Shown: positions 3,302 to 45,152 of the stretch, in pieces
Layout: each line of letters opens with the position of its first letter
Numbering within the stretch: position 1 is the first letter of the stretch
Virus record (IMG/VR): IMGVR_UViG_3300050821_005889
Origin: a virus
Length of the DNA stretch: 64,000 nt
Reading direction: 5' to 3' (one strand)
The notes under the pieces: generated by a model
Seen by the model: only the letters and a program-made list of their open reading frames with translations
What the model was told of the DNA's origin: nothing
Databases searched by the model: none
Translations under genes and position numbers: made by a program

Positions 3302-3320
3302 CGTTTTAATTTTAAGTTAG

Positions 3321-3416
3321 TGCGGGGAGCTGGAGTCGAACCAGCAAACTATTCACCAACAAACAAAGGAAGTGGAACCTTTCCCATTGGCCGCTTTACC
3401 ATTTGCGTACCCTCGC
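3321..3416 (-). tRNA. non-canonical tRNA-like gene (96 nt), identity unresolved
   Basis: On the minus strand the acceptor GCGAGGG pairs with TCCCCGC at 6 of 7 positions. There is a 3-bp D-arm (CGC-AAATGGTAAA-GCG), a perfect T-arm (GCTGG-TTCGACT-CCAGC) and discriminator A. However, 45 nt lie between the D- and T-arms instead of about 22, so I could not fold a standard 7-nt anticodon loop. Confidence 0.4.
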
Positions 3417-4534: not shown

Positions 4535-5281
4535 TTAATCAATTTTAGACAGCCACACCTTCTTGTTGTTTTTCCAGTTGAAGATAGTTTCAAGCATGGT
4601 AAGGTATTGTTTTACAGAACCGGCATGAACCAATTCTGTTGACATATATTGTAGTTTCTGCATGAATTTATCAAAGTCAAATTCTGGATGTTCTAAGGCA
4701 TGAACCATAGCAAACACAAAGCTGCGCCTTTTGTATCCATCATAGTATTGTTTTATACGATGAATCTTATCGCCAATATCATTGGCTTTCTTTAGTTGGG
4801 TTATCTTAAATGTCCCATTTTCAAATGCCTCTGGAGCTCCCCCCTTTCCTCCTGCCTGCGCCCCGGTGAGAAGGGATAACGAAATCTGGTGGGCAAATCC
4901 ATACTTTTCCTGGAACTCTTTATATTTAACGTAGTCTTCCTTACCTTCATTGATATATCTGTGAAGGTAATCTTCGGCAACCCATTTATCATGGTTGGTA
5001 TTAGCCCTTGTAACCTGTTCTATACCATAGCCTTTTACAATTATAAAGAATACAGGCTTCCCAAGTTGGGCAATGGCAGACAGCCTGTTCTGCCCGTCAA
5101 TAATTTCAAACTTATCATTAACAATGATAGGTATTTGCAACTGCTCTTCCTCTATGGACTTCATGAGCTTTTGAACATGCCGATTGTCAAGTTCCCTGTT
5201 GCCTTTCAGTTTCTTAAAGACTCCATAGTCTTTAGTTTCGAGGACTTTGTTGACCTCCTTGAAGTGTTTAGCTTTTAACAT
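4535..5281 (-). CDS. ParB/Srx-like N-terminal domain protein
   Basis: 248 aa. GNRELDNRHVQKLMKSI ... IIDGQNRLSAI matches the ParB-like nuclease / DGQxR box arrangement. Motif-level call. Confidence 0.6.
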   Translation of the reverse strand: MLKAKHFKEVNKVLETKDYGVFKKLKGNRELDNRHVQKLMKSIEEEQLQIPIIVNDKFEIIDGQNRLSAIAQLGKPVFFIIVKGYGIEQVTRANTNHDKWVAEDYLHRYINEGKEDYVKYKEFQEKYGFAHQISLSLLTGAQAGGKGGAPEAFENGTFKITQLKKANDIGDKIHRIKQYYDGYKRRSFVFAMVHALEHPEFDFDKFMQKLQYMSTELVHAGSVKQYLTMLETIFNWKNNKKVWLSKID

Positions 5282-6788: not shown

Positions 6789-6812
6789 TTTTGCAATCAG
6801 TTAGTTGTTTAC

Positions 6813-6839
6813 GGGAGGGGACTACTATGAACCCCTCCC
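6813..6839 (-). terminator. GC-rich hairpin between early genes
   Basis: GGGAGGGG-11 nt-CCCCTCCC, an 8-bp all-GC stem in the 107-nt gap after 6896..7252. A second hairpin (ACAGGG-8 nt-CCCTGT) sits at 6854..6873. There is no U-tract. Confidence 0.45.
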
Positions 6840-6895
6840 TTCCTCACAATTATACAGGGGCTTGGAACCCTGTAACTCAACTGCAACACAATATC

Positions 6896-8122: not shown

Positions 8123-9025
8123 TTAAGATTCAAAATTATAAGGTTGTCCATCTTTGTAAACCAGGTGGTACCCGGCAGCCACGGCGTCCTTACGATGCAG
8201 TGTTTCATAAACCCCGTCAGGGTTCACATACACTACACTGTGCCACGGGCTGCGTGTGGCCTTTGGACTACGTATCAATTGGAAGGAATATTTTTTCCCG
8301 TTATTAATACTGTTGTGCATAGATAGCCTTACGCTATCCTTAAACTCATGGGCTATAAGGGCAGAGTATGCTTCATTGCGTAACATCATTTCACGGGTCA
8401 GCAACTTTGCCGCCTTGTGTAATTGGTTACGGGATGGAAATTCTTTGACCGCCAGCTCTTCTTCCATGAATATAGACATTCCCCTGTACAGGTAATTAAC
8501 GTCCGGCTCCATCAGGATGCGGCGCTCTAACTCTACAGGTGTGATGCCGAATTGCTCCACTACCTTAGCCCTCATGTTGGCAAGGTGTCCTTGTCCTCCG
8601 TAGAAGTCTCTAAGGTCATACCAGCGAATAGGGGCTACTTTGGCAAGGTCTATTGACCTCTGCTCATAGTCTTCTACTGTGGTGTCTGATATGCCCAGCA
8701 GGTCTGAGAATATAAAGCCATCACTTACGATGGAGATATTCACGCCCGGAGGGTATATCTTTTTGATTGCATCGTTGAACTGCCCGAAGTTTTTCAGTGA
8801 CAGCTCTTCGCCCAGGTCAGGCAGTGTTCCTATTACCTTGTTCCTGGTATTAGCCGATTTCATCGGGTATCCCAGCATGACAAACGGAATAGGTTCCCCT
8901 GTTGTGACCTTTGAGTTTATCTTGTCGGCAAGTACCTGCTTGCCTACGGTCTCAAATTGGTCAATGGGCGTGGGTGGCATCCTAAAGTCCCGGAACGCCT
9001 CCACAATTGATTCTGTTGTGTTCAT
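8123..9025 (-). CDS. isonitrile (isocyanide) synthase, PvcA/IsnA/Dit1 family
   Basis: 300 aa. Family hallmarks appear in the expected order: GEPIPFVMLGYPMKSANTRNKVIGTLPDLGEE; YPPGVNISIVSDGFIFSDLLGISD; RLSMHNS; SPWHSVV. The length also matches the family. Confidence 0.7.
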   Translation of the reverse strand: MNTTESIVEAFRDFRMPPTPIDQFETVGKQVLADKINSKVTTGEPIPFVMLGYPMKSANTRNKVIGTLPDLGEELSLKNFGQFNDAIKKIYPPGVNISIVSDGFIFSDLLGISDTTVEDYEQRSIDLAKVAPIRWYDLRDFYGGQGHLANMRAKVVEQFGITPVELERRILMEPDVNYLYRGMSIFMEEELAVKEFPSRNQLHKAAKLLTREMMLRNEAYSALIAHEFKDSVRLSMHNSINNGKKYSFQLIRSPKATRSPWHSVVYVNPDGVYETLHRKDAVAAGYHLVYKDGQPYNFES

Positions 9026-13575: not shown

Positions 13576-13662
13576 AACTGTTTAGTTAGTTTACACGCCC
13601 CGTGTATCCATTCGGCAGCGTGTGCTCACTATCTTGTTCCGGCTTGCAACGGAGTAAACAGT
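13576..13662 (-). repeat. conserved intergenic element, copy A
   Basis: Minus-strand reading: GTTGCAAGCCGGAACAAGATAGTGAGCACA, then the hairpin CACGC...GCGTG, then AAACTAACTAAAC and the ATG. Roughly two-thirds identical by eye to the core of copy B at 16354..16433. Confidence 0.55.
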
Positions 13663-16353: not shown

Positions 16354-16433
16354 TGTGTTAACAGTTTAGTTAGTTTGCAGCCTTTCGGCTGTGTTCACTA
16401 TTATCATTGCGGACTTACAACCGCTAACTGTTT
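16354..16433 (-). repeat. conserved intergenic element, copy B
   Basis: Minus-strand reading: GTTGTAAGTCCGCAATGATAATAGTGAACACA, then the hairpin CAGCC-GAAA-GGCTG, then AAACTAACTAAAC. Matches copy A in order and spacing. Confidence 0.55.
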
Positions 16434-17485: not shown

Positions 17486-17656
17486 TTACGGTTTTAGATG
17501 TTGTACGTATGAAGCGAGGGAATAGGTTGCCGGTGTAAGCCCGTACACGTTTATACGCTCCTTAATCATAGGTGTATGCACCTTTACAGGCTGCATTGAC
17601 TTAATAGTCTTAAGGGCACTGATACGTGCCTTTTTGCGTGCTTTGCTTGTTCGCAT
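17486..17656 (-). CDS. hypothetical basic protein (56 aa)
   Basis: MRTSKARKKARISALKTIKSMQPVKVHTPMIKERINVYGLTPATYSLASYVQHLKP. Hand-translated. Confidence 0.45.
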   Translation of the reverse strand: MRTSKARKKARISALKTIKSMQPVKVHTPMIKERINVYGLTPATYSLASYVQHLKP

Positions 17657-17661
17657 AGGTA

Positions 17662-18003
17662 TTAGTTTATGTAATTAGATTTATTGAGTTTAGGTAATAG
17701 TCCAACGGGATAAGAATCAAAGGATTGCAAGGCACCTGCGAGGGAATTAAGCCCTTTGGATATGCGCATAGCATAGCGCTCCAAATGGAACACACCTTTA
17801 CTATCTTGCCACAGTACCCATTTGCCCGAACGTCCGTTATTGACGCGGGTATGAGTAGTCACACGGGCAACGTTAGCCCTCTTTGATTTAGGTATATTTC
17901 GGTATATACCTACATTGTGTTGAATGTCCATAAATGTAAAAATTAGCATAACAGGCGCGGTTTGACCGTAGTTACTATATGCTTCTATGCCGAATCTTAT
18001 CAC
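17662..18003 (-). CDS. hypothetical protein; first gene of the leftward block, start uncertain
   Basis: The track start at 18003 is GTG. In-frame ATGs occur at codons 19 and 25. Confidence 0.5.
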   Translation of the reverse strand: MIRFGIEAYSNYGQTAPVMLIFTFMDIQHNVGIYRNIPKSKRANVARVTTHTRVNNGRSGKWVLWQDSKGVFHLERYAMRISKGLNSLAGALQSFDSYPVGLLPKLNKSNYIN

Positions 18004-18429
18004 GGGAGTATCTTGACAATTAACTAAGAATAGTTAACCATGTATAGAAGGTATTTAACAGCCTGTTACGTCTGACTTTATTTATTCCGTTACGGGTGGA
18101 AGGTGAATATATCGACCTTTTAACCTACCTTTGGTTATTGCGCGTTCGGTGGAATCGGACTTGCTTATCCCCTACATTGTGGAACTTAGTTCCTTGCGGC
18201 CTTTTTGCTCTTTATCCTATATACAAGGTATATAGACTTATTACAGTAACGGGAAACGTCCGAAACGAGGCACCCGCTTTGAAACCGTATATTTAGTAGT
18301 TAAGAAAAGGATAGGTACATTTGTAAGCTATTTAACCGCCCTCTTAATGTCCGTTATCATAGTCGAACGATGCAAACATAGTATAGGGAGGTGTACAAAA
18401 AGTAGTACAATAAGTTAGAATGATATATT

Positions 18430-18463
18430 TAATCGACTAACGGAATAATATAATCGACGAACG
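18430..18463. repeat. direct repeat TAATCGAC[TG]AACG x2 with 21-nt period, in AT-rich DNA
   Basis: Copies at 18430..18442 and 18451..18463. The nearby CACAAAACACAAAACA is a second tandem repeat. Confidence 0.6.
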
Positions 18464-18619
18464 TATATATAAATCAGTTAAGCCATATAAGGCACAAAAC
18501 ACAAAACAGATCAAAAATGAGGTTTCCGGTATATTAGACAAGGTGTATAGAAGAATGGAATAGCATTAACCATGCCAAACATATTAAAACTTATGCGTCC
18601 TATATACAGTACAGTGTGT

Positions 18620-19061
18620 GAATAAGTTACCTACCTAATGGCAGGCAGGTACCTATATATTAGTACTCACTTATAATCCCAATACACACAAAGGACTACC
18701 CATTTTCTACGTCCAAAGGACTACCCCGAAAGCGCTACCATGTGCCACAACAAACCAGCTACCTACAAAAGGGTAACCACAAAGTTACTCATGTATGACA
18801 AAGTGGCAGGATGTAGGAAGGAAAGGAAGGGTAACCTTTTCCCCCTATGTTCCACGTGAAACAGGTTACCTAATTCCTTGTAACCCAATGAGTTACCCAA
18901 TTATAGGTAGTGTTTCACACGTGGTTACCAATGACCTGTTAGACATTTATGACTACCCATAAATAGGTAGGACATGACATAATGTCAGGTAGCCGAAAAG
19001 GAGTAGCCATGACATGGTAGGGCACACAAAAAAAAGAAGTACCCCGAAAGGACTACCCCCA
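18620..19061. repeat. iteron-like array of TACC-core motifs
   Basis: I counted about 17 forward [TCA]TACC/TAACC motifs and about 6 reverse GGTAG motifs in roughly 440 nt. AAAGGACTACCC occurs three times (18690, 18715, 19047). TACCCCGAAAG occurs twice (18722, 19040). GGTNACC occurs four times (18772, 18830, 18864, 18923). Confidence 0.7.
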
Positions 19062-19503
19062 CAGGAACCACTTTACCCCTCCCCCCGGTAGCCGGGGTGG
19101 GATATAGGAGTATCGGACTCCCGGACAGGGACATGAGCCTTACTCCCTCATAGCCTCCCACCCATTCATGCACCTTCCTTATCCTTCCTTGAGGGTCACA
19201 AGCCTTTTCATTGACGCAGGGCTGTCATAACCTTTCCATATCCCGGCACACCTACGGTAAAGGACACCTTACCCCCTGCAGGGGTACCTGGGGGTCACAC
19301 AAGGACGTATAGGGGTCATGGGTATTGAGATGGACAGAAGCAAATCACCTGTGCCCAGGTCGTCTGTAAGGGGACGTAGGAGGGGAATAGAAAAGGATAT
19401 TGTCTCTATTATTGTAGCTAAGAGACGAAACCTCATAAAGTATTGATTATCAGTATAGGTCAGTTCAATCGAACTTGATTTTTGTTCAATAGTTCTGAAC
19501 AAG

Positions 19504-19534
19504 TTTGATGTTAGTAACTATTTTAATAGTTTTG
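19504..19534 (+). promoter_or_regulatory. Bacteroidota-type promoter for the rightward block
   Basis: TTTG (19504..19507), 19 nt, then TAGTTTTG (19527..19534). Sits 20 nt upstream of the ATG at 19555. Confidence 0.5.
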
Positions 19535-19554
19535 GTATAGTTCAATAATATTGT

Positions 19555-20151
19555 ATGATGATTAGTAATAAATACAGCACAAAGCCGGTATATGTGAATA
19601 ATCCATTTTCTAAGGAAGCAGTTAGTTCTTTTAAATCGGACTGGATAGATTACAGGGAGAAAGGAGTAAGGATGATAGTAGAGGAGACCGGAGAGGTTAT
19701 GGACTTTAAAAAGCCGGAAAGCAGCGTCCAGGTCTTTGAGGATACAGCAAGGTTTGTTAAGTTCTATGCAGGCTTCGGGGAGCAGTTCCGTAAACTAAAA
19801 GAAAGCGGTCAGAGCATCTTCTGGTTTATATTTCTTAAACGCCTTAAGCGCAACAGGGACTTTGTGTATATAGACATGGCTGAATGCGTAGCGTACTGCG
19901 GATGGAAAAGCAAGACCGGGTTCTACACCGGGCTGTGTGACCTCATTGAACATGATTTCATTGCTAAAAAAGCGCAGGAGGAAAACTGTTTCTTTATTAA
20001 TATCACCCTGTTCTTCAATGGTAGCCGCAAACACTTACAGGTGTTCAGGGATTGGGTAACAGCAGAGAAAGCTAAGGTTCCGCCGGAAGTAAATAAATTA
20101 CAAGATAAAAATACAGGTGGGCAATTGGAATCAGAGAAGGGGGGTGAGTGA
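19555..20151 (+). CDS. winged-helix DNA-binding protein, replication-initiator-like
   Basis: 198 aa. The pattern FVKFY...LKESGQSIFWFIFLKRLKRNRDFVYIDMAECVAYCGWKSKTGFYTGLCDLIEHDFIAKK...FFINITLFFNGSR is typical of wHTH Rep/MarR-like phage and plasmid proteins. First gene next to the iteron array. Confidence 0.45.
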   Translation: MMISNKYSTKPVYVNNPFSKEAVSSFKSDWIDYREKGVRMIVEETGEVMDFKKPESSVQVFEDTARFVKFYAGFGEQFRKLKESGQSIFWFIFLKRLKRNRDFVYIDMAECVAYCGWKSKTGFYTGLCDLIEHDFIAKKAQEENCFFINITLFFNGSRKHLQVFRDWVTAEKAKVPPEVNKLQDKNTGGQLESEKGGE

Positions 20152-23097: not shown

Positions 23098-23706
23098 ATG
23101 AAAGCACTAAGACGAAAAGACAATAAAGAATGGGTTGTTTTTAGTGACGCCGGATTCTTTGTATCTAAGTATCCAGATTCGCTTGCGGACGAAGCTACTA
23201 TGGAAGGCATTAAAGAATACATAGAAGTATTAGGAGAGCCACTTAGCCAGGAGCTTATTGAATCTCTTGAGCAATACGAAATAGTGGATGTGGAGTTTTG
23301 GGTGCCTGCGGATAACCCGGTACCGGATAGTATTGAAGGAGACATACGAAGCAATCAGGATGAACTACTATTTAAGGGTTACACAAAAATGCCTGTGTAT
23401 GACAAGAAAGCAGATGATGAAAAATCAATGCTTGACATATTGTTGAAGTGGCTTGCGGATGCCAGTGCTTTTGGTTTTGGAAAAGTTCTTATATCGTTTG
23501 ACTCAAAGGATAAGGCTGAAAAATTCAGAACTACACTTAAACAGGAGTTCAAACCTATACGAACACACAAAACTAAAGGTGACGATGTTATGGTTCATGG
23601 ACTTGATAGCCTTTGGTTTGGTAGAGTTGTATTATATTATCCTAATGACAGCGAATGTGACGACCAGATTATTGAAGGAGACATACGAAACGAAATACAT
23701 CTATGA
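23098..23706 (+). CDS. hypothetical protein (202 aa) with internal exact 20-nt repeat
   Basis: TATTGAAGGAGACATACGAA occurs at 23331..23350 and 23670..23689, encoding IEGDIR both times. Confidence 0.65.
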   Translation: MKALRRKDNKEWVVFSDAGFFVSKYPDSLADEATMEGIKEYIEVLGEPLSQELIESLEQYEIVDVEFWVPADNPVPDSIEGDIRSNQDELLFKGYTKMPVYDKKADDEKSMLDILLKWLADASAFGFGKVLISFDSKDKAEKFRTTLKQEFKPIRTHKTKGDDVMVHGLDSLWFGRVVLYYPNDSECDDQIIEGDIRNEIHL

Positions 23707-24032
23707 CCATCGGCGACAGTCCATTTAATTATTCTAAATCGCCATCACAGGCCGCAGCATTGCCTAACTCACGCAAGTTGGAAGACCTGTTTTTCAAAGG
23801 CTACTTCACTATGAAGCCATCCGCCAAAGATGTCCTGATGTATATTGTTGGGGTATTACCTGCTGGTAAGGACTATGTAGAACTCAAGGCTCCAAAGGTC
23901 ATGAAGTCCACCGGCATCAAATCCAATGAGACCTATTACCGCAGCCTTAAGACCCTCATGGAAAGGGGGTATATTGCCAGGTCGCTAAAGCAGGGGACTT
24001 ACTTCATTAACCTCAATAAAATGTTTATATGA
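23703..24032 (+). CDS. winged-helix DNA-binding protein (109 aa)
   Basis: VLMYIVGVLPAGKDYVELKAPKVMKSTGIKSNETYYRSLKTLMERGYIARSLKQGTYFINLNKMF. Same wHTH pattern as the 19555..20151 product. Confidence 0.5.
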   Translation: MTIGDSPFNYSKSPSQAAALPNSRKLEDLFFKGYFTMKPSAKDVLMYIVGVLPAGKDYVELKAPKVMKSTGIKSNETYYRSLKTLMERGYIARSLKQGTYFINLNKMFI

Positions 24033-25234: not shown

Positions 25235-26488
25235 ATGCCTGAAAATCAAACAGCGCCTGCGCAAGACCAGACCTCGGTAATACCACCGGAGCTGCTTAGC
25301 GTATTATCTCTCGCAGAAGCCAATGGCGGAGATGCCCTGGCAGACGCAATGAAAATCCTGGAACGCAATGACATTAAAATCGTAGGAGCGGACAACAAAG
25401 GAATTTATGACGACAGGAATACCCCAGGCCAACAGGCTCCTGTACAGCAGAATGCACCGGCACCTGCCCAGGCTCCTAATCCAGCCCCCGCTCCGGCAAA
25501 ACAGAACACAGACCCAAACAACATACTCAATGATTTTATAGAGCCCAATGCGGCTCCGGCAAATAGTATCGTAGCCAACTCCATCGAAGACATCACAAAA
25601 ATCCTTAAGGATAAGTACAATATCCAGGATATACCCACATTCCTTGAGTCGGCTGACAAGTGGCGTTCAAAAGCCACCCAGTCCGAACAGGAGATACAAA
25701 GACTCCAGAACTTTAAAGGAGCATGGGACAACCTTCCCCCTGACTTACAGGACGTAATGGTTGCCTATTATGAGAACCGGGACTATACAGAAATATTAAA
25801 CAGTCCCAAATTCATCAATCTTAATAAGCCTTTTGAACAGCAGGATATAGCTAAGGTAGTTCGCTATCTTAATCCTGACATCAACCTTAGCAATAAGGAT
25901 GCAGATGATTATGTTGACTTGGGAGACATCAAAGACCCCAGCGTAAAGGCTTTAATCAATACAGCAAAGACTCAATACGCCCGTGAACAGGCTTCTTATA
26001 AAGCCAACCTGACCTCGCAAAAAACTGCACAGCAAGAAGACCAACGCAAGTTCGTTTCCTCTGTCGATGCGTCGTTGCAAAAGTTGACTACAACTCTTCC
26101 TACCACAGCCGCAGAGCGCGTCAAAGACGTTGCCGGTGTGCTTAAGAGCGGAGATATAGAAGGCTCTTTGTTCTACCAGGGTGATTTATTGAGAGAGGAT
26201 GCTGCCGAGCGCGCCTACTATGCCCTTCATGGTAAAGCACTTATTGCTGCTGCAAAAGAAAAAATTGCAGAGCTCAATAAGACCATTGAGACCACGGTAA
26301 GTGGCGGTAGCGGTGACCAGCCTCGCCAGTTCAAGAGAGGGTCTAATGGTCAGGCTCCAAAACCACGGGAAGTGGAACATGCAGAGGAGTTCGCAAACGC
26401 GGTATCAAAGAGAGGGTCTGTTTACGACCCTGACCCGCAGAAAGATGAGAACGCCCGTAAAAATGCACGTCCTGCCTGGGTCAGTTAA
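25235..26488 (+). CDS. putative scaffolding protein
   Basis: 417 aa. Contains a Pro/Ala/Gln low-complexity segment (QQAPVQQNAPAPAQAPNPAPAPAKQ) and long helical stretches. Lies directly upstream of the putative capsid gene. Position-based call. Confidence 0.45.
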   Translation: MPENQTAPAQDQTSVIPPELLSVLSLAEANGGDALADAMKILERNDIKIVGADNKGIYDDRNTPGQQAPVQQNAPAPAQAPNPAPAPAKQNTDPNNILNDFIEPNAAPANSIVANSIEDITKILKDKYNIQDIPTFLESADKWRSKATQSEQEIQRLQNFKGAWDNLPPDLQDVMVAYYENRDYTEILNSPKFINLNKPFEQQDIAKVVRYLNPDINLSNKDADDYVDLGDIKDPSVKALINTAKTQYAREQASYKANLTSQKTAQQEDQRKFVSSVDASLQKLTTTLPTTAAERVKDVAGVLKSGDIEGSLFYQGDLLREDAAERAYYALHGKALIAAAKEKIAELNKTIETTVSGGSGDQPRQFKRGSNGQAPKPREVEHAEEFANAVSKRGSVYDPDPQKDENARKNARPAWVS

Positions 26489-26514
26489 TTTTTAACCCCT
26501 AAAGAAAACAACAA

Positions 26515-27771
26515 ATGCAACTTTTCACGTTTCCCTCACCTTCATTCAACAACGCAGAGTTGAATGCGCCGGGCTCCAATTATGCCCAGCAATACGGTAA
26601 GGATACGACCAAGCTCATAATGGAAATCATACGCAAGACCATCTTCGATGCCGTTCCTGCTGATTACTATGACCTGGCAATCCTTAATATGCAAAATGCG
26701 AAATTTGTCTCTGGTGACGAGCATATATACTTTGAAAAAAGTATCCAGCGCCAGGGTATCCTTACCACTGTCCTTTCAGGTAATATTGCTGCCGGTAGCG
26801 TACAGATCATCCCCATCACTAATATTGATGATGCTGGCGTAGACTACATTGTGCAGAATACAACCACGCAGGTAAGGGGTACTATCACCTCCGTGAATAC
26901 AACCCTGGGCACCATGACCGTTCAGGCTTATTCAGGGCAGACCTTGCCACAGCTTAATTCCGGGTCTCAGTACACCTACATCCTGTCTACCTCTGTAGAT
27001 GGTGACGGAACAAGCAACATCACCCAGTCTCAGCGTTTGGACAACCTGATTGAACGTTATAATTATGTTCAGCAGTTTGCAAGGCGTACAGACTATGGTC
27101 GTATGGAAAAGTTCAAGTATGACAAAATCGGCACTACCGATTACGTTACCGAAAACAAGAAAGAGCTTATCAACCAGTATCGTATGGACTTGTCCAACGC
27201 TATGTGGAACGGTGAGCGCGGTGAGGTAACATTGTCAAACGGGACAAAGGTTAAAACAATGGGCGGCCACTATCCAACCATGTTGGCAGCAGGCTCTGTT
27301 CAGATTTCAACCACCATTTCCAACCTGCCGGATGCAGTGATGCAGGCTCACTACCTTTCCCGTTACGGGACAGGAAACTACGTGCGTATGTTATATGCCG
27401 TACCTGAAATGATTCACAACATTGCTGTTGCCCTCAAACAACCTTTGATTCGCTGGCAGCCAAAGAATGATACTGCTGCTGATTTAGGGCTGGAGTATAT
27501 GAGCTTTGGTGATGGCAAACTGGTGTTTGTTCCAATGCAACGCTGGGAACAGAAGTCTAATTGCTTCTCTGCCGATTGGGAAAAGAGGATAATCCTTTTA
27601 GACCAGCAGAACATCATACCTGTTCTGGCATGGGGCGAACGTACCGGGTACATTGGAGACCGTTCCCAGAATCCATATACTTTCAATAACTACTCAACTG
27701 AGTACATTGAAGGAACTATGAGCGTGGAGCACAACAATCCACTTGCCGGTGCAATCATCGACGTAATGTAA
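26515..27771 (+). CDS. putative major capsid protein
   Basis: 418 aa. Follows the scaffold-like gene, has its own strong promoter upstream and a 13-bp hairpin directly downstream. No motif-level proof. Confidence 0.55.
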   Translation: MQLFTFPSPSFNNAELNAPGSNYAQQYGKDTTKLIMEIIRKTIFDAVPADYYDLAILNMQNAKFVSGDEHIYFEKSIQRQGILTTVLSGNIAAGSVQIIPITNIDDAGVDYIVQNTTTQVRGTITSVNTTLGTMTVQAYSGQTLPQLNSGSQYTYILSTSVDGDGTSNITQSQRLDNLIERYNYVQQFARRTDYGRMEKFKYDKIGTTDYVTENKKELINQYRMDLSNAMWNGERGEVTLSNGTKVKTMGGHYPTMLAAGSVQISTTISNLPDAVMQAHYLSRYGTGNYVRMLYAVPEMIHNIAVALKQPLIRWQPKNDTAADLGLEYMSFGDGKLVFVPMQRWEQKSNCFSADWEKRIILLDQQNIIPVLAWGERTGYIGDRSQNPYTFNNYSTEYIEGTMSVEHNNPLAGAIIDVM

Positions 27772-38090: not shown

Positions 38091-39886
38091 TGGCTGACGA
38101 TTTAAAATATAATGACATAGGGGAAGACCAGGTAGAAGACTCTAATGACTCAGAGGTAATTACCGGGCAGGACACCCCTGCGGAAGCATACGGTGCCGGT
38201 GTCGCCGCTTACCAGCAGGCTGCAAGAAAAAATAAAGACAACGGCTCAACTCCGTATAGCCCCATAGCCGCAGCCCTTTCCAGAACACGCAACAGTGCGC
38301 AACAGATTCCGGGAGTCCCCGGAAGTATTTCTACAGACCCTGGTACACCAGGGATAACAAGAGACCAGGCATATCCTTCCGCTCCTGTAAGGATGCAGGA
38401 TTTGCCGGGAAGGTATTTTGGTGCCACTCCTATATTTCTTGGTGGCCAGCCACTGTATCCTGTATCATTGGAAGAAGCCCGTAGGCGTTCCAATAATGAT
38501 TACATGGCGTCACAGGAACAGGCAAGGCAACAGAATGAAAACACGCTGTTCACAAATCTTACAAGGCAAAAGGTAGCCCCTGCATACCAGGAAAAGGCGG
38601 ATAAGATGCTGGATGACCTTTATGATGATTACTCAAAAACATTTGCGCAGAAAGGAAGATATGGTGCAGTAGCCGCTTATAACGACCCTAATAGCCCTGA
38701 GTTCAAAGAGTTTACACAGAAGTACCATAACTACCTGCAATCTACAGAGGCCATCAATCACATGGACACTCTTTTGTCGCAGGCGCAACAACGTCCACCC
38801 GATGAATTATCCCCCGCTACCAAAGCCCAAATTATAAAATTCCAGACCGGAGGGTTTATGAACCCGGACGGCACTGTTGATACACAGACCCTACAAAAGT
38901 CTTATGTTGACCTGGCTAAATATATGGGCTATGATGGTATTATAAAAAGCATTGCACCCTATATAGCAAAGGATAGTGAATCATTTTTCCAGCAAGGAGC
39001 CAAAGATGCAAACGGGAAAGAAATATCTCCTCTTGATAATGACCACCAGTTTATAACAGAGGTTAAGAAAAATCCAAATTGGGACAAGCTCATTGATAGT
39101 AAGTATGTTCCTATGCTGCTTAGTCATGCCGGATTAAACCCTGCTCTCAATGACCCTAAAGCAGCGCACGATTATCTTAAGCAGATACTTCCTGAGTTCG
39201 TAGAAAAGCATTTCTATGATGTGCAAAGGTCTTCTGCAAGTGCCGGAGAAAATAAGGTGGCCAATGAAGGTAATTGGGTAGTTGATTTTGCCAACCAGGT
39301 AAGAGGCAGTAATGTAGATGGAGCCGTTCACACCGGCGGAGAAAATGATAACAACCCTCGCGGTGTGATGATGCAGGCTCCGGGAGACATGTCTACCAAT
39401 ATCACTAATCCTAATTTCTTAAAATATATTGTAACAGGACAGGATGCCAACGGCAACGCTATTACAGCCCAGGACACCCGCAAAACAATAGTTAATCCTA
39501 TATCCGGTTTATGGAAGGACAATTCCACCGGAGATATATATAAAGTTCCTGCTGCTGCCAAAAATCCAACTACAGGAGATATTGATTGGGGGCAGGTACG
39601 CACTCCGGCTAATAAAGTAACTAATATGTGGACGGATGTAATAGTTCCGTATTACAGAAGTGTAGGAGGGACTGGGGCAGAAACTAAATTGACCCAGATT
39701 CAAAAGAAAATGTGGACACAGCAACCGCAGGAAGCACAGGCTCTTGGTATTCCTCCACTCCCTAAAGGTGGAAATGCAGCCCCGGCAGCATCTGCCCCGG
39801 CTAAAACTATAGTAAGAACAGGAGTTGACAAGACAGGGAAAAAAGTAGTTCAATATTCAGACGGTACTGTAGGATATGCCCAATAA
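38090..39886 (+). CDS. hypothetical virion-module protein (598 aa)
   Basis: TAATG overlap with the upstream gene. Confidence 0.7.
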   Translation: MADDLKYNDIGEDQVEDSNDSEVITGQDTPAEAYGAGVAAYQQAARKNKDNGSTPYSPIAAALSRTRNSAQQIPGVPGSISTDPGTPGITRDQAYPSAPVRMQDLPGRYFGATPIFLGGQPLYPVSLEEARRRSNNDYMASQEQARQQNENTLFTNLTRQKVAPAYQEKADKMLDDLYDDYSKTFAQKGRYGAVAAYNDPNSPEFKEFTQKYHNYLQSTEAINHMDTLLSQAQQRPPDELSPATKAQIIKFQTGGFMNPDGTVDTQTLQKSYVDLAKYMGYDGIIKSIAPYIAKDSESFFQQGAKDANGKEISPLDNDHQFITEVKKNPNWDKLIDSKYVPMLLSHAGLNPALNDPKAAHDYLKQILPEFVEKHFYDVQRSSASAGENKVANEGNWVVDFANQVRGSNVDGAVHTGGENDNNPRGVMMQAPGDMSTNITNPNFLKYIVTGQDANGNAITAQDTRKTIVNPISGLWKDNSTGDIYKVPAAAKNPTTGDIDWGQVRTPANKVTNMWTDVIVPYYRSVGGTGAETKLTQIQKKMWTQQPQEAQALGIPPLPKGGNAAPAASAPAKTIVRTGVDKTGKKVVQYSDGTVGYAQ

Positions 39887-42800
39887 TAAAAAACCAGACC
39901 CGCAGGATATACAGTGGGACGCTCCGCATCCAAGTGATGTAACCTGGGATACACCCGCCACACCCCAGCCAGCTCCTGCCATGCCTGCACCTGCCCAGCA
40001 GGGAGGCAACATTGTACCTATGTGGTCTCATCAACAGGAGCCTGCACCTAATGCGCCGCTTGCATCTACTAACTATGGCGTGTCAGAAACAAATCAAAAT
40101 GCACCTGCGCAGCCCCCTTTAGAGTCTTCGGTTCCCGGTCAGCCAGATGCAACAGACAAGGCTCTTAAAAGGGCTAACGATTTTATAGACCAGGCGTCTG
40201 AGTTTTTACCGGAAGGAAATGTAAAGGATGTATCAACGCTGGCAGCAAAAGGTGCATTAGGAGCTGTCCAACAATTTAAGCAAGGTTCAGAACAGGTAGC
40301 ACAGGCCGGAGGTGTTCAGCAGGGAGCACAAGCTATTCCCACTTCGCAGAATGCACAGGTAGAACAGGATGCCTCAAAAGAAAATGTCGCATATAGTGGC
40401 GTAGCCACAATCGTAGGTCTTGGCAAAATGCTTATGGGCGTAGGGGCTCTTACTGTACCTGAAATTAATGCCTGGAACTATGGGTCTGCGGCATTGGCAC
40501 AGTCCTCTCCGGGCGTAGCCACTCAGGTTAATAACTTCTTTTCTTCTAAAGCAGAAGATGACCCAAATTCTCCCAACTTCGGTAAGGTGATTATTCCTAC
40601 AGGGGCGGCTCCTATAATCCTTGACTCTAATAAGCCGGGACAAAAAGCTGTCCTGGAGTTCCTTGATTTCCTTCCGCAGTTAGTACTTGGTGGTATGATT
40701 GCCGAAGGCGTTTCGGTAGACCAGGCAAACGAAATAGCATCCAAGATTAAAAAAGGAGAGGTGCTCACCCCGCAGGAAGATGCCATTGCCGCAAAAGGAA
40801 CACAAACATATCTGTCAGACCCTAAGAATATTATCACCAATGAGACCCTGGGCAAAATAAAGCCCGACCTGTCAGATGGTAAGAAGGTAGCCGTGGCTCC
40901 TCTTATTGAACAAAAGCAGGCACTGGAACAACGTAATGTAGGGCTACTTGAGTCTAAGGGCAAACTGGATTCTTCTTTTCATGATGACGTGGATAAAGAA
41001 GTTGCCGATAACGAGAAACAAATAGCTACCTTAACCCAACAAATAAAAACTAAGGCAAATGAAAAAGAAACTACGCCAGGCACTGCGCAAGGTGCCAATA
41101 CCCAAGCCGACAACAGACCCGGCGAGAGCCAAGAGGGAGAAGGAGTGGGACAGCAGCAATTACAGGGAGGAGTACAAGGACAACAGCCTGGAGCAGATAC
41201 AGGCACCCAACCTGATACCCAAGAAACTGTTGCGTCGAATGAAAAACCAGGGATAATCAATGCCCCTACAAAGCAAACGTCAGATGCGCTGGATGTTCAA
41301 GAACCATCCGCAGATGGCAAAGGAATGGGCGTCGGAGACACCCAACCTCAAGGAACTACCGGAAAAGAAGAAGGTAGCGGAAACGCTAAAGGCGCACCGA
41401 AAGAAGAAATAAAACTGGAGTCACATCCTGGTTTTGAAGCCCCTGACCTCAAGGACTATGAAGGGAAAGATTCAGACCTGTTCCCGGAAAGGGAATGGGC
41501 TAACAATCCTGACCGCGTTACCATGCGTGATGGCAATGAAGTAGGAACAACTTTCCGACAACTGGCCAAGCAGACCCAGGATGGAATGAAAGATGTTAAG
41601 GACAATGCGCCTGATAACACTCTTATCACCACTCATTCCAAGAATGGCAGGATGATTAATGCCTTAAGAAAAGTGGGTGATGATATAGACCTGGATAGTG
41701 ATGAAGGAATAAAAAAAGTAGCTAAGGCATATCTTGCAGAACCCGATATAGAAAAGGGGGAGCCCCAAACCACAAAACTTGATAATGGAAAAACAGTGCA
41801 TGTCGCTATGCACGGAACTACCGAGGACGACCTGAAAGATTTTAATTCCGGGCAGAGTCCAGTTAATCTTTCTAAGGAAGGCATCAAGGACAGCAAGGAT
41901 ACAGCACAGGCAGTTGAAGATAAAAACATAAGCCATATTATCAGCTCTCCTACAGAGAGGGCAATGAAGACGTCTAAGATTATCCAGGAGCATCTTAATA
42001 AACAGATAGCTGAACAGAAATCCAAAGAGCCTGTCATGTCCGCAGAGGACTTTGATAAACAAGGGCTCAACTACGGCCTACAGGAAGATGGTACACGTAT
42101 GGAACCTGAGTTAAACATCAAGTTCAAAAAACCTATTACCAACAACCAGATGCGCCGCATCAACGAGGTGATGGATTTACCTAAAGGCGCATTATCCGAA
42201 GATGGTAAGGAGCTTACTATAACCAACGATTCTAAAACAAAGACCCATGACCAATTCATTGCCGACGTCGCAGTCCTCAAAAACAAACTCAATGAGTTCA
42301 AGCGAGTTCCAACAGAAATTAACCAACGTGTTAGGAGACTGGCTTCCGAAGTTGAAGGGGGCACCGAAGCTGCTACACAGCCAGAAACCGGCAACAAGCC
42401 AGCCGAAACTGAACCAGCAAACACCAACACAGTCAATACCGGCAGTGAAGGCGGACAACCTGAACCAGTCCCCGGCGAACCCACTGGGACAACTGACGCC
42501 GCCAGACCAAACCAAGAATCAGAACCTGTAACACAGGCTGCTGGCTTTGCCGGTGGCGCAGAGCCTCCACAACCACCAGATGTGACAAGAGAGGGAGTAT
42601 ATGACGATACGCCTGACTATAATAAATCTTCTTCACCTGTACAGGATTTCCTTAATGATACAAGAAGCGCCCCTAAGTTTGAACGAGATATAGCACAGAA
42701 TGTAAAACAGCTCAACGGTATCAATAAGGCCAATACGCTCCGCGCTGTGAAGCTCATGGAAATGCTGCCGGATAAATTTAAAGACCCGGTACTCCAGGAG

Positions 42801-45152
42801 AATGTATATCACCACATGGAAGACCCAACACTGACACTTACCGCAGACGAGATGGAGTTCAGGGATAAATATGTGGTTCCGGTGCTTAATGAGATTCAAG
42901 GGCTGTATCGTAAACTGGAAAAAATAGACCCTGAATCTGCGGCGGCGGCAATGAAAGATGCTGTTAATTATTTCCCGCGTCTGGCTAAAGACAAGCAGGG
43001 AATCATTGACCGTATAATAAATGGAACTAAATACATAACCGGCGGCGGCTTATTAGGTAAAACAGCATCTTCTCTTAAAAGCCGTATTTATAAAGCCCTT
43101 ACAGATAATAATGGCAACAGGACGCTTGTAACTATGAAGGATGGAAGGGTTACGGCTTTGCATGGATTTGACGAAGATGGCAATTCTGTAACACAAGACC
43201 TGGGTGGATTTAAAAGAAGTGATAAAGGTCTTAGTACAAAAGAACTGAGAGATAAACAACTTAATGATGACCTGGGCTATGATAAAAAGATGGGCAAATT
43301 ACAGGCGGAGAAGAAAAATATCCAACGCTTCGCTGATGACCCTAAAGGACAAAGAAGGCTTGATTACATTGAGAAGAAAATTAATGACCTCAATGCAGCG
43401 AAAGACAAGATAAATGAACATTATGACGGTGTGCAAAAAGTAGATGACCTTAATGCAGAACGCACAGACCTTCGCAATTCATTAATTACTATAAAGGATA
43501 AAGAGCAAAGACAACAAGTGCAGGCTCGTATTGCAGACCTTCGGAAACAATCAGAAGACCTGGAAAACCAGATGCCTAAATACTGGGTAGACAAAAACGG
43601 TAAGTTTTATTCTATAGGTGAAGCTACAACCAAAGAGATTGAAGAAAAGTCCCCTACTCAATATTATCATACCCCATTTGCAAACGTGATGTCATCCTAT
43701 CTTGACTTACAGAGGGCTGACACAGCAAATACATTTATTGACCACTTTAAAGAATCTCCAGAATTTAGTAAGATAGGCGTTCCTAAAGGCGACAAAACGG
43801 TTCCGGGAGATTGGCGCGAGGTATTACCTATACAATTTAAAGGATATGTTTTCGACCCTAAAACGGCGGCTAACTTAGATTTACTTTATCGCAATGGTAA
43901 AGCCGACCCACTTCAATCCCTTACTAATATAAATACATTCTTTCGGGATACTATAGTGCTTGGGCCGGGCGTAAAGCACTGGTATAATATTGCTGACCAA
44001 TGGATAAAACAGGGAGGTTTAGTTACAAGGTTAACTAACCCGGTACGCACCACTAAGGCCATGATGAAAGCGTTCCATGATGTATCTACGCAGAGCCCGG
44101 ATTATTTTAAAGCCCTTGAGAATGGAGCAGGGTTAATGTACCGGGAAACGCAGGACGCTTCTAACCTGCTGCTTAAAGTAGCGCTGGAGCAAAAGAATCA
44201 GACATGGTTCCAGAAGCTATCTGACAAGATGGGGTATGCTAATCCAGAAACATTATTTGAAGCACTTCGCAGCACTTCTCATAAATCTGCATTTTACGTA
44301 AATGATATGTTGGTTATGCAGGCTATAAACGAAGAGGTTGCAAAAGGTAAGCCGTGGAGCGAAGCTGTAAAGGAGGTTCATAAATATCTGCCGGATTACC
44401 AGATACCGGCTCAGGTGCTTGGCAGCGAGAACCTTGCAAAAGTCCTTCGCAACCCCAACCTGTTAACATTCGGCTCTTACCATTATAACATCATGGACTC
44501 ATACGCTAATATGGCAAACGACCTGGGCAGGGCAATGAGTAATTCAGGTATGAGTGCTGCAGATAGGGGGCTTGCTGTCGACCGGGTGGCCACTGCTGCA
44601 TTTATGCACTTTGCTTTCTATGCAGGACTTACGGCTCTGTATCATGCTGTTGGGGGAGATAAGGATAAAAAGATAGGGTCTTCCGGTGGCACTAAGTTCA
44701 TGGATGATGCTATAGATTTCATTAAAGGGAATAAGAATTTAAGACAGTTTGTTCAGGGGTATTTCATGCCAGCCGTAGGAACACAGGCTGCCGCAGAGCT
44801 GATAACCAATACCAAATTATCTCCTTACGAATCCGGTAATATATATACCCCCACCGATGTAAACAACCATCCCGGCGAAGCGCTTAAAGATATAGGCAAA
44901 TACCTTGAAACTAAAGTAGCACCACAGACATCACAGCTACAAAGCGGCAAACAGACCGCCGGTGATTTTATACAAGACCAATTACTCAATACAAAAATTG
45001 ACCGTACCGACCAGGAGCAGAAGTTTATGCAGCTCCTTCATGAAAGAGACCAGATAAACCAGAAGGTACATGACCTTAAGAAAAAGGGGAAGTATTCGGA
45101 GGCCACACAACTTCAACAACAGTATAACCAGGACTTGAATAATGCCAGGTAA
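39876..45152 (+). CDS. giant multidomain protein (1758 aa), candidate internal/ejection protein with embedded histidine-phosphatase-like segment
   Basis: Pro/Gln/Glu low-complexity N-terminal third. HVAMHGTTEDD...LSKEGIKDSKDTAQAV...ISHIISSPTERAMKTSKII (nt 41796..42000) resembles the RHG...SSPxxRAxxT phosphoglycerate-mutase-like pattern but has MHG. Central region is coiled-coil. Hydrophobic stretch near the C-terminus. Confidence 0.6.
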   Translation: MPNNKKPDPQDIQWDAPHPSDVTWDTPATPQPAPAMPAPAQQGGNIVPMWSHQQEPAPNAPLASTNYGVSETNQNAPAQPPLESSVPGQPDATDKALKRANDFIDQASEFLPEGNVKDVSTLAAKGALGAVQQFKQGSEQVAQAGGVQQGAQAIPTSQNAQVEQDASKENVAYSGVATIVGLGKMLMGVGALTVPEINAWNYGSAALAQSSPGVATQVNNFFSSKAEDDPNSPNFGKVIIPTGAAPIILDSNKPGQKAVLEFLDFLPQLVLGGMIAEGVSVDQANEIASKIKKGEVLTPQEDAIAAKGTQTYLSDPKNIITNETLGKIKPDLSDGKKVAVAPLIEQKQALEQRNVGLLESKGKLDSSFHDDVDKEVADNEKQIATLTQQIKTKANEKETTPGTAQGANTQADNRPGESQEGEGVGQQQLQGGVQGQQPGADTGTQPDTQETVASNEKPGIINAPTKQTSDALDVQEPSADGKGMGVGDTQPQGTTGKEEGSGNAKGAPKEEIKLESHPGFEAPDLKDYEGKDSDLFPEREWANNPDRVTMRDGNEVGTTFRQLAKQTQDGMKDVKDNAPDNTLITTHSKNGRMINALRKVGDDIDLDSDEGIKKVAKAYLAEPDIEKGEPQTTKLDNGKTVHVAMHGTTEDDLKDFNSGQSPVNLSKEGIKDSKDTAQAVEDKNISHIISSPTERAMKTSKIIQEHLNKQIAEQKSKEPVMSAEDFDKQGLNYGLQEDGTRMEPELNIKFKKPITNNQMRRINEVMDLPKGALSEDGKELTITNDSKTKTHDQFIADVAVLKNKLNEFKRVPTEINQRVRRLASEVEGGTEAATQPETGNKPAETEPANTNTVNTGSEGGQPEPVPGEPTGTTDAARPNQESEPVTQAAGFAGGAEPPQPPDVTREGVYDDTPDYNKSSSPVQDFLNDTRSAPKFERDIAQNVKQLNGINKANTLRAVKLMEMLPDKFKDPVLQENVYHHMEDPTLTLTADEMEFRDKYVVPVLNEIQGLYRKLEKIDPESAAAAMKDAVNYFPRLAKDKQGIIDRIINGTKYITGGGLLGKTASSLKSRIYKALTDNNGNRTLVTMKDGRVTALHGFDEDGNSVTQDLGGFKRSDKGLSTKELRDKQLNDDLGYDKKMGKLQAEKKNIQRFADDPKGQRRLDYIEKKINDLNAAKDKINEHYDGVQKVDDLNAERTDLRNSLITIKDKEQRQQVQARIADLRKQSEDLENQMPKYWVDKNGKFYSIGEATTKEIEEKSPTQYYHTPFANVMSSYLDLQRADTANTFIDHFKESPEFSKIGVPKGDKTVPGDWREVLPIQFKGYVFDPKTAANLDLLYRNGKADPLQSLTNINTFFRDTIVLGPGVKHWYNIADQWIKQGGLVTRLTNPVRTTKAMMKAFHDVSTQSPDYFKALENGAGLMYRETQDASNLLLKVALEQKNQTWFQKLSDKMGYANPETLFEALRSTSHKSAFYVNDMLVMQAINEEVAKGKPWSEAVKEVHKYLPDYQIPAQVLGSENLAKVLRNPNLLTFGSYHYNIMDSYANMANDLGRAMSNSGMSAADRGLAVDRVATAAFMHFAFYAGLTALYHAVGGDKDKKIGSSGGTKFMDDAIDFIKGNKNLRQFVQGYFMPAVGTQAAAELITNTKLSPYESGNIYTPTDVNNHPGEALKDIGKYLETKVAPQTSQLQSGKQTAGDFIQDQLLNTKIDRTDQEQKFMQLLHERDQINQKVHDLKKKGKYSEATQLQQQYNQDLNNAR

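Follow-up and report, generated by a model that had tools for sequence, protein, structure and literature searches.

The locus and its setting

We analyzed a 64,000-nt stretch of viral DNA (IMG/VR record IMGVR_UViG_3300050821_005889), and "the window" below always means this whole stretch. The subject is a 442-nt region at positions 18620-19061, which a sequence-only reading had flagged as a dense array of iterons with a TACC core. The region lies in a gap free of open reading frames (ORFs). This gap separates two divergent gene blocks, with small leftward genes up to 18003 and rightward genes from 19555; at the gap the AT skew switches sign and the cumulative GC skew is at its minimum. The following features are relevant to the analysis.

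18004..19554 (no strand): ORF-free gap of 1.55 kb, from the ORF lists; the gene calls of the source contig are empty between 17932 and 19554
18391..18500 (no strand): A/T-rich stretch of low stability to the left of the cluster, a candidate DNA-unwinding element
18620..19061 (no strand): the flagged cluster, with 13 TACC and 7 GGTA cores; sub-types TACCC and TACCTA
18688..19060 (+): ten copies of the extended 12-mer AAAGGrsTAmCC, from a position weight matrix (PWM) scan; repeat families D1 and D2
18759-18777, 18892-18910 and 18953-18970 (no strand): three palindromic TACC-N8-GGTA units with A/T-rich spacers; inverted repeats I2 and I3, direct repeat D7
18852..18924 (no strand): central imperfect palindrome of 73 nt with arms CCACGTG..AAACA..TTACCTA; inverted repeats I6 and I21
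19062..19330 (no strand): G+C-rich continuation (50-68% GC) with two TACC-N9-GGTA units and three copies of GGGTCA (19193, 19292, 19313)
19416..19461 (+): diverged copy, CTAAGAGACGAAACCTCATAAAGTATTGATTATCAGTA, of a block conserved in related phages; alignment A3
19474..19554 (+): A/T-rich stretch before the initiator gene, with a -7 motif, three copies of GTTCAAT and a 14-nt inverted repeat (I12, D12)
19555..20151 (+): first gene of the rightward block, encoding a RepL-like winged-helix protein of 198 amino acids (aa), a putative replication initiator
23703..24032 (+): gene for a 109-aa paralogue that has the winged-helix domain in common with the 198-aa protein, a second candidate binder

The source contig (ENA ERZ27253562, k141_4960875; 72,060 nt) begins at window position 18896 and ends at window position 19036. 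With its 141-nt k-mer overlap it closes into a circle of about 71.9 kb, and no difference from the window was seen wherever the two were compared. The DNA belongs to a new phage of about 72 kb from a poorly charted group, and most of the proteins in the window are without a family match. The portal protein is P22-like and distantly crAss-like, and 39% of its length aligns with a crAss-like phage at 24.6% identity; homologues of the major capsid protein (MCP) carry PF17236. Upstream of the genes lies the -7 motif TAnnTTTG, which is of the Bacteroidota type, and the host is probably a member of the Bacteroidota. Upstream of the start codon of the initiator gene no Shine-Dalgarno sequence was seen by eye.

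The repeat cluster is not a product of chance

The dense cluster of short TACC-type repeats at 18620-19061 is real and statistically robust. A motif-enrichment check of the array against the rest of the window found 20 copies of TACC or GGTA in the 442 nt; the whole-window mean for this length is 4.56 (standard deviation 2.3), and the next best non-overlapping segment has 11. The longer motifs are enriched as well, with 11 copies of CTACC/GGTAG where 0.9 are expected (Poisson 3e-9) and seven copies of TACCTA where 0.24 are expected. A second control consisted of 5000 dinucleotide-preserving shuffles of the region itself, which is conservative. One of these shuffles equalled the TACC/GGTA count and 11 equalled the count of the commonest 5-mer; none had as many identical 8-mer pairs as the region (42 versus 6.3 +/- 3.4 in the shuffles). 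Together the shuffle and whole-window controls rule out chance or an artefact of composition.

Iteration of the PWM gave the extended 12-mer, whose ten copies score at least 13 bits; no match of at least 14 bits occurs elsewhere in the window. The 16-nt PWM matches start at 18688, 18713, 18727, 18765, 18885, 18995, 19031 and 19045 on the plus strand and at 18827 and 18862 on the minus strand. The cluster also extends beyond the flagged end, with TACC-N9-GGTA units at 19074-19090 and 19270-19286. It most likely spans 18620 to about 19300 and comprises some 25-30 short sites, putative binding sites, over about 700 nt.

The longer repeats described in the sequence-only reading were all recovered. 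AAAGGACTACCC is present at 18690, 18715 and 19047 and TACCCCGAAAG at 18722 and 19040, and neither has a further copy in the window. The motif GGT[AT]ACC occurs at 18772, 18830, 18864 and 18923 (four of the 13 copies in the 64 kb), and these four sites are symmetric around position ~18850. The inverted pair has its arms at 18852-18872 and 18904-18924, and the purine tract at 18816-18830 has a near-complement at 19172-19189 (18 nt, 78% complementary). The counts by eye were slightly high: the roughly 17 forward copies are in fact 14 ([GCA][TC]TACC 11 times and GTAACC three times), and the roughly six reverse copies of GGTAG are four, rising to six if GGTA[GA][TGC] is counted.

Three of the window's four copies of TACC-N8-GGTA fall within 18759-18970. 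The central palindrome, folded as single-stranded DNA, has an energy of -13.6 kcal/mol (z = -3.5). The sequence CACGTG occurs only twice in the 64 kb, at 18853-18858 and 18917-18922, both within this palindrome; its rarity may be due to genome-wide restriction-site avoidance, or it may be a specific site.

The cluster is flanked by DNA of low stability. The stretch 18391-18500 ranks among the ten of lowest stability in the 64 kb at lengths of 100 nt and 200 nt, and the region 19474-19574 is the second least stable 100-nt stretch of the window. Both of these candidate unwinding stretches also bear promoter-like motifs. On the left, TAnnTTTG motifs on the minus strand are found at 18373-18380 and 18576-18583; a further leftward promoter-like motif is at 18780. 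On the right, the Bacteroidota-type -7 motif TAGTTTTG lies at 19527-19534, 28 nt ahead of the ATG, and the 14-nt inverted repeat has its arms at 19488-19501 and 19509-19522. The segment 19474-19554 is the probable promoter/operator of the initiator gene.

The adjacent gene belongs to a RepL-related family

The 198-aa protein encoded directly to the right of the gap appeared to be an orphan in a word-indexed search. An exhaustive HMMER search with this protein yielded 671 representative homologues at E <= 1e-3. The family is well aligned over 150-200 residues (alignment A1) and has the signature NPF...TGE...F.K.Y...LS..G.KV..YI......CGY.S....Y.GL.ELL...FIAR....YFIN.N.FFNG.R. The Pfam model RepL (PF05732) was matched by 16 of 50 family members and Rep3_N by four of the 50. 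One homologue (P0073) reaches 43.6 bits on RepL, for which the cut-off is 20.3, over model positions 5-142 of 164; it matches the 198-aa protein with E = 6e-25 and 32% identity over residues 5-158. On the strength of these homologues we assign the 19555-20151 product to a large RepL/Rep3-related family. Structural and further sequence approaches added little: an AlphaFold model of the protein made without an alignment was too poor for use (pLDDT, the predicted local distance difference test, of 40), sequence searches of the PDB gave no useful match, and tblastn of the initiator and of P0073 against phage records gave no match.

The sequence-only reading had nominated three proteins as binders of the array. 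Two of them, the 19555-20151 and 23703-24032 products, turn out to be related RepL-type winged-helix proteins. The 109-aa paralogue matches the 198-aa protein in BLASTP with E = 5e-8, and it has a weak match to phrog_428, "replication initiation protein" (7.5e-4), as well as weak winged-helix and RepL matches in Pfam, all under the cut-offs. The third nominee, the 4535-5281 product, is ParB-like (phrog_12305, 4.7e-34), with matches of the GmrSD_N / ParB-nuclease type under the Pfam cut-offs, and a scan of 45 window ORFs revealed no ParA.

Members of the RepL-like family are also the main ORF on four contigs of 1.3-3.4 kb. These come from bacterial assemblies, and their circularity was deduced from terminal k-mer overlaps.

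L116: putative circle of 1267 bp, Arsenophonus; the RepL-like gene is the sole ORF of at least 80 aa
L108: putative circle of 1689 bp, Bacteroidales metagenome-assembled genome
L110: putative circle of 3433 bp, uncultured bacterium (bin-14315)
L120: putative circle of 3305 bp, Undibacterium; coverage 163, with three copies of CGGTCTATCAAAA directly upstream of the gene

These putative mini-circles provide strong circumstantial support for the view that the family acts as a replicon initiator. L108 and L110 also have in common an element, GTGAGCGAAGCGAACACC, that contains the mini-hairpin motif GCGAAGC.

Gap, gene and repeats recur together in related phages

Family members are encoded at 15 IMG/VR loci, several of them on contigs of 60-72 kb, the size of this genome. 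Sufficient upstream sequence was available for 11 of the loci, and in nine of these the gene is the first on the plus strand, separated from divergent genes by a gap of 450-1350 nt that contains no ORF. Stitching the ends of the circular contig L097 revealed a tenth such case, with a gap of 1079 nt.

The gaps contain short repeats of their own. In L105 the pair TACGA/TCGTA occurs ten times (1.3 expected) and forms three TACGA-N6-TCGTA units at intervals of 25 nt, and in L092 it occurs seven times (1.7 expected). The gaps of L101 and L096 have two 20-nt tandem copies 24 nt apart, that of L100 has three to four GTGTA-N5-TACAC palindromes, and that of L097 has about four copies of a GGTAAAATAG-type motif, as read by eye from the sequence. 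Lineage-specific cores in both orientations beside a fast-evolving DNA-binding protein would be the pattern expected of sites that co-evolve with their binder. The TACC array of the window is the largest example seen among these gaps.

Some of the relatives' gaps also hold a CG/CA-rich tract of 50-60 nt, CGCACATACGCACGCATACGCGC, which is prone to form Z-DNA (L100 2212-2268, L096 2158-2204, L097 1-45). Its ATACGC units resemble the inverted-repeat arms at the promoter of the RepL-like gene.

The gaps themselves have diverged: blastn detected no similarity between the gap of the window and those of the relatives, and only a short block, 19416-19461, can be aligned. In most related phages this block of about 45 nt, TAATATATATAAGAAGGAAACCTyrTAAC....TGAnnATCAAT, lies ~85-140 nt upstream of the RepL-like gene; in L215 the distance is ~590 nt. 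The loci with both block and gene are L092, L094-L101, L105, L140, L180, L186 and L215 (alignment A3). About 20 positions of the block are invariant although the proteins are just ~30% identical. It occurs once per related locus, and all eight loci that were recovered by the block alone have a RepL-like gene downstream. In the window the diverged copy includes GAAAYCTNRTAA, which is found once in the 64 kb, at 19427. The block together with its downstream leader gave no consensus RNA structure (-0.35 kcal/mol), and the mini-plasmids that encode members of the family lack the block. It is probably recognized by a conserved factor and not by the variable initiator; it may be an origin core, a promoter element or a terminase signal.

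Searches for the array itself were negative. The gap DNA had no match in 50,697 phage records, and IMG/VR yielded no close relative when queried with two proteins encoded nearby or with a 20-mer taken exactly from the array. Relatives recognized by their MCP (43-59% identity) are non-syntenic at the locus and show no TACC array in the fetched flanks. A gapped iteron pattern returned 76 loci from IMG/VR, none of them comparably enriched; in one, L032, from a high-GC phage, the match lies within a winged-helix ORF. A stricter pattern returned seven loci from JGI metagenomes; the three that were inspected (L086, L087 and L090) proved to be tandem satellites with a 12-nt unit, flanked by high-GC DNA and unrelated to the array.

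A candidate origin of replication, and other explanations

That the region contains many sites for one or two sequence-specific binding proteins, as the sequence-only reading proposed, is the best-supported explanation on the basis of context and comparison. The term iteron array in its strict sense does not hold. The cores are spaced irregularly (4-196 nt) and are not helically phased; the array therefore departs from the textbook iteron type. The RepL-like 19555-20151 product is the most likely binder, possibly together with its paralogue 23703-24032. With moderate confidence we favour the interpretation that the cluster consists of initiator-binding sites and forms, together with the flanking A/T-rich stretches, the replication origin and control region of the phage. 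We hold this view because of the cluster statistics, the gap at the strand switch, the adjacent RepL-family gene, the family members on mini-circles, the recurrent architecture and the precedent of crAssphage.

Binding by the initiator, melting of A/T-rich DNA and a start of replication at this place are what we infer, and the events can be pictured as follows. The initiator would bind the direct 12-mers AAAGGrsTAmCC as a monomer and the palindromic TACC-N8/9-GGTA units as a dimer, and a large nucleoprotein complex would then form on ~0.5-0.7 kb of DNA. This complex could destabilise a neighbouring A/T-rich stretch, either 18391-18500 or 19474-19574. Host replication proteins would be recruited, and forks would depart in both directions, co-oriented with the divergent gene blocks.

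Several observations weigh against an origin of this kind. The conserved core is merely 4-5 nt long, with a degenerate 12-nt extension; it is present in both orientations, and a Rayleigh test found no 10.5-nt helical phasing of the cores (p = 0.4-1.0). Classical iterons, by comparison, are 17-22 bp long, number 3-7 copies and are regularly spaced by ~22 bp, or two helical turns. DnaA boxes are not enriched in the window (22 matches with at most one mismatch versus 21.2 expected), and the single match at the cluster is located at its edge. The GC skew is inseparable from the direction of transcription here. The cluster is 500-930 nt away from the start codon of the initiator, whereas the repeats of the relatives are ~190-540 nt away, and no close relative with the same TACC array was found in phage records, IMG/VR or metagenome searches. 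The 198-aa protein itself passes no threshold in Pfam, PHROG or NCBIfam, and it has no Pfam match even at E <= 10. Finally, in phage P1 the RepL-dependent origin (oriL) is placed inside repL and the binding sites of RepL are not known (PMC9948254), and plasmids of the pSN2 family with a Pfam RepL protein are classed as rolling-circle replicons (PMC5703833).

Among the other explanations, one that is unlikely is that the TACC sites are operators, at which one of the winged-helix proteins or another phage regulator times the two divergent early operons, with the origin elsewhere. The position of the cluster between the leftward motifs (18373, 18576 and 18780, minus strand) and the rightward one (19527) would suit this role, and the TACC-N8-GGTA palindromes resemble the operators of dimers. 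In the relatives, moreover, covarying inverted repeats overlap the promoter of the same gene (ATACGTCA/TGACGTAT, ATACGC/GCGTAT and ATATGCA/TGCATAT, as read by eye from the alignments). However, 25-30 sites over ~700 nt far exceed the needs of an ordinary operator, and most of them are 100-900 nt away from any promoter-like motif. The repeats that are close to the initiator's promoter (GTTCAAT three times, within 19460-19554) do not contain TACC, and the neighbouring protein belongs to a family of replication initiators. Rep proteins commonly regulate their own synthesis via inverted copies of their site; control of transcription and an origin are therefore not mutually exclusive. A less probable explanation is that the termini of the genome, either direct terminal repeats or a pac site, are in the gap and that the short repeats serve in the processing of concatemers. 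Assemblies are cut in the gap unusually often, including two circular contigs built with different k-mers: that of this phage is cut at 18896-19036 and the 65 kb circular contig L097 at the left edge of the conserved block. In addition, the L095 contig begins 18 nt ahead of the block and the L093 contig stops at a point 557 nt upstream of the gene. A conserved terminase signal could well take the form of a near-invariant block of 45 nt with a single copy per genome, and dense arrays of short repeats adjoin the ends of phage T7. Yet both of the cut circular contigs carry exact k-mer overlaps (141 and 127 nt), as is typical of a circular assembly, in which the cut can be arbitrary. Just one of the eight loci recovered with the block is at a contig end (L211, the same contig as L095), and the pile-up of contig ends at the block was gone in this wider sample. 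The terminase and portal genes are ~37 kb distant, and arrays that differ between lineages are more easily explained by a specific binder that evolves fast than by a conserved packaging machine. The frequent cuts may reflect physical ends, an (AT)n tract or strain variation.

Two further explanations find little favour. It is very unlikely that the array is a plasmid-type centromere (parS) bound by the ParB-like 4535-5281 product in a phage that lives as a plasmid. Many centromeres consist of short repeats in direct and inverted orientation, a ParB-like protein is indeed encoded, and a phage-plasmid lifestyle has been proposed for crAssphage (PMC10983915). But this protein matches the GmrSD_N / ParB-nuclease type, under the Pfam cut-offs, its gene is 13 kb away, a ParA partner is missing from the scanned ORFs, and the gap and repeats of the relatives travel with the RepL-like gene and not with a ParB gene. 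We give still less credence to a structured non-coding RNA in which forward TACC pairs with reverse GGTA. Nested inverted repeats (18732/19012, 18759/18946 and 18852/18904) and a local RNA folding z down to -4.6 around 18850 speak for it. However, the z of the whole region is just -1.7 to -1.9 on either strand, and the G+C-rich part, 19062-19330, shows no excess folding (local z around 0 or positive); the excess comes from one palindrome, which is equally a feature of DNA. There was no match in Rfam 15 at E <= 1 in 17500-20000, nor in the gap at gathering thresholds, no promoter/terminator pair brackets the region, and alignable homologues for an analysis of covariation are lacking.

If the array is an origin, a phage lineage in which hardly any gene is annotated gains a concrete and clonable candidate, made up of the array, the conserved block and the RepL-like gene. 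What looked like an "orphan" at the head of the rightward block would become a member of a widespread family of mini-plasmid initiators. The segment would then allow tests of autonomous replication and of initiator specificity, and possibly the development of vectors for Bacteroidota. A phage-plasmid lifestyle has been proposed for crAss-like and related phages of the Bacteroidota.

A broader proposal, which we put forward only as speculation and consider doubtful, concerns the uncultured group of 60-72 kb phages, probably of Bacteroidota, as a whole. These phages might replicate by a plasmid-type module with three components. The first would be a RepL-like initiator that evolves quickly, and the second an array of sites with a 5-bp core, which differs between lineages and would set replicon specificity or incompatibility. 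The third would be the near-invariant 45-nt block, recognized by a conserved factor. No other array of this kind would be as large or as elaborate as the TACC array. A module of this sort might allow the plasmid-like carriage that has been suggested for crAssphage; another possibility is that the physical genome ends are marked by the block.

Other features of the phage genome

In relatives, among which L003, L004 and L008 were compared, the portal, scaffold and capsid genes are contiguous. In the present phage portal and scaffold are separated, round the circle, by ~38 kb that holds the origin-like gap and for the most part small unknown genes (56657-58888 vs 25235-27771). L008 represents an intermediate state, with an inserted block of 5 kb.

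Several other features were noted in the window.

13578-13661 (-), 16361-16431 (-) and 6797-6879 (-): type-P3 twister ribozymes (RF03154; 47.6, 41.4 and 41.2 bits, gathering score 39.9), all between small genes of the leftward block
8123-9025 (-): strong match to PvcA/DIT1 isonitrile or dityrosine biosynthesis proteins (PF05141, 4e-65), with the same family in the gene calls of the source contig
3320-3394 (-): tRNA-like gene called by ARAGORN with an abnormal two-base anticodon; Rfam gave no tRNA call at the gathering threshold
1-77: tandem hexamer CCGTTG, 12.7 copies, also readable with an 18-nt period; it probably belongs to a gene that runs off the edge of the window
39876-45152 (+): 1758-aa protein of the structural block with a histidine-phosphatase domain at residues 646-713 (PF00300, 1.4e-12)

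Comparison with known systems

The array invites comparison with several known elements. Dunn and Studier are said to have described, in 1983, arrays of 7-mers (SRL and SRR) that adjoin the terminal repeats of phage T7, and to have proposed a role in concatemer processing. Like these, the present array belongs to a podovirus and is a dense collection of short motifs in non-coding DNA where the early region begins. The T7 motifs, however, are regular, have one orientation and adjoin known ends, whereas here both orientations occur, the spacing is irregular and the assemblies are circular.

With the lytic replicon of P1 and with pSN2 the phage has in common a small initiator named RepL. RepL-driven replication of P1 involves an important A/T-rich element (PMC9948254), and the pSN2 protein is an ~18 kDa helix-turn-helix protein (PMC5703833).

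The iteron-containing origins of pPS10, F, RK2, P1 (oriR) and lambda (PMC4980987) resemble the locus in that many copies of a short sequence lie beside the gene for a winged-helix initiator. In both cases direct and inverted copies have the same core, in the manner of monomer sites and dimer operators, an A/T-rich stretch is adjacent and, as in RK2 oriV, a G+C-rich stretch is nearby. The present array departs from these origins by its short core (12 nt at most), by its number of copies (~25-30 in 700 nt), by its irregular and unphased arrangement and by the lack of a cluster of DnaA boxes. In layout it is closer to an oriC-like cluster of boxes in a chromosome than to the iteron set of a plasmid.

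The closest parallel is the prototypic crAssphage (Carjivirus communis). It has two ORFs with a RepL domain (PF05732) near strand switches (PMC4111155), and its origin was predicted directly upstream of the repL gene that is first on its strand, using Ori-Finder, GC skew and coverage (PMC10983915). The present phage is very distantly related to crAssphage, as seen from the portal identity and the MCP family (PF17236) given above. Nevertheless the two have much in common: a gene for a small winged-helix initiator of the PF05732 type that is first on its strand at a switch in coding direction, a second, distantly related copy in the genome, a predicted origin in the non-coding DNA upstream of the gene, and a Bacteroidota host, which is probable here. 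They differ in that the crAssphage origin is described, in the portion of the report used, without a repeat array (PMC10983915). Taken together, the feature represents a familiar class of element, although its layout is irregular and atypical, and it is an expected finding rather than a new principle.

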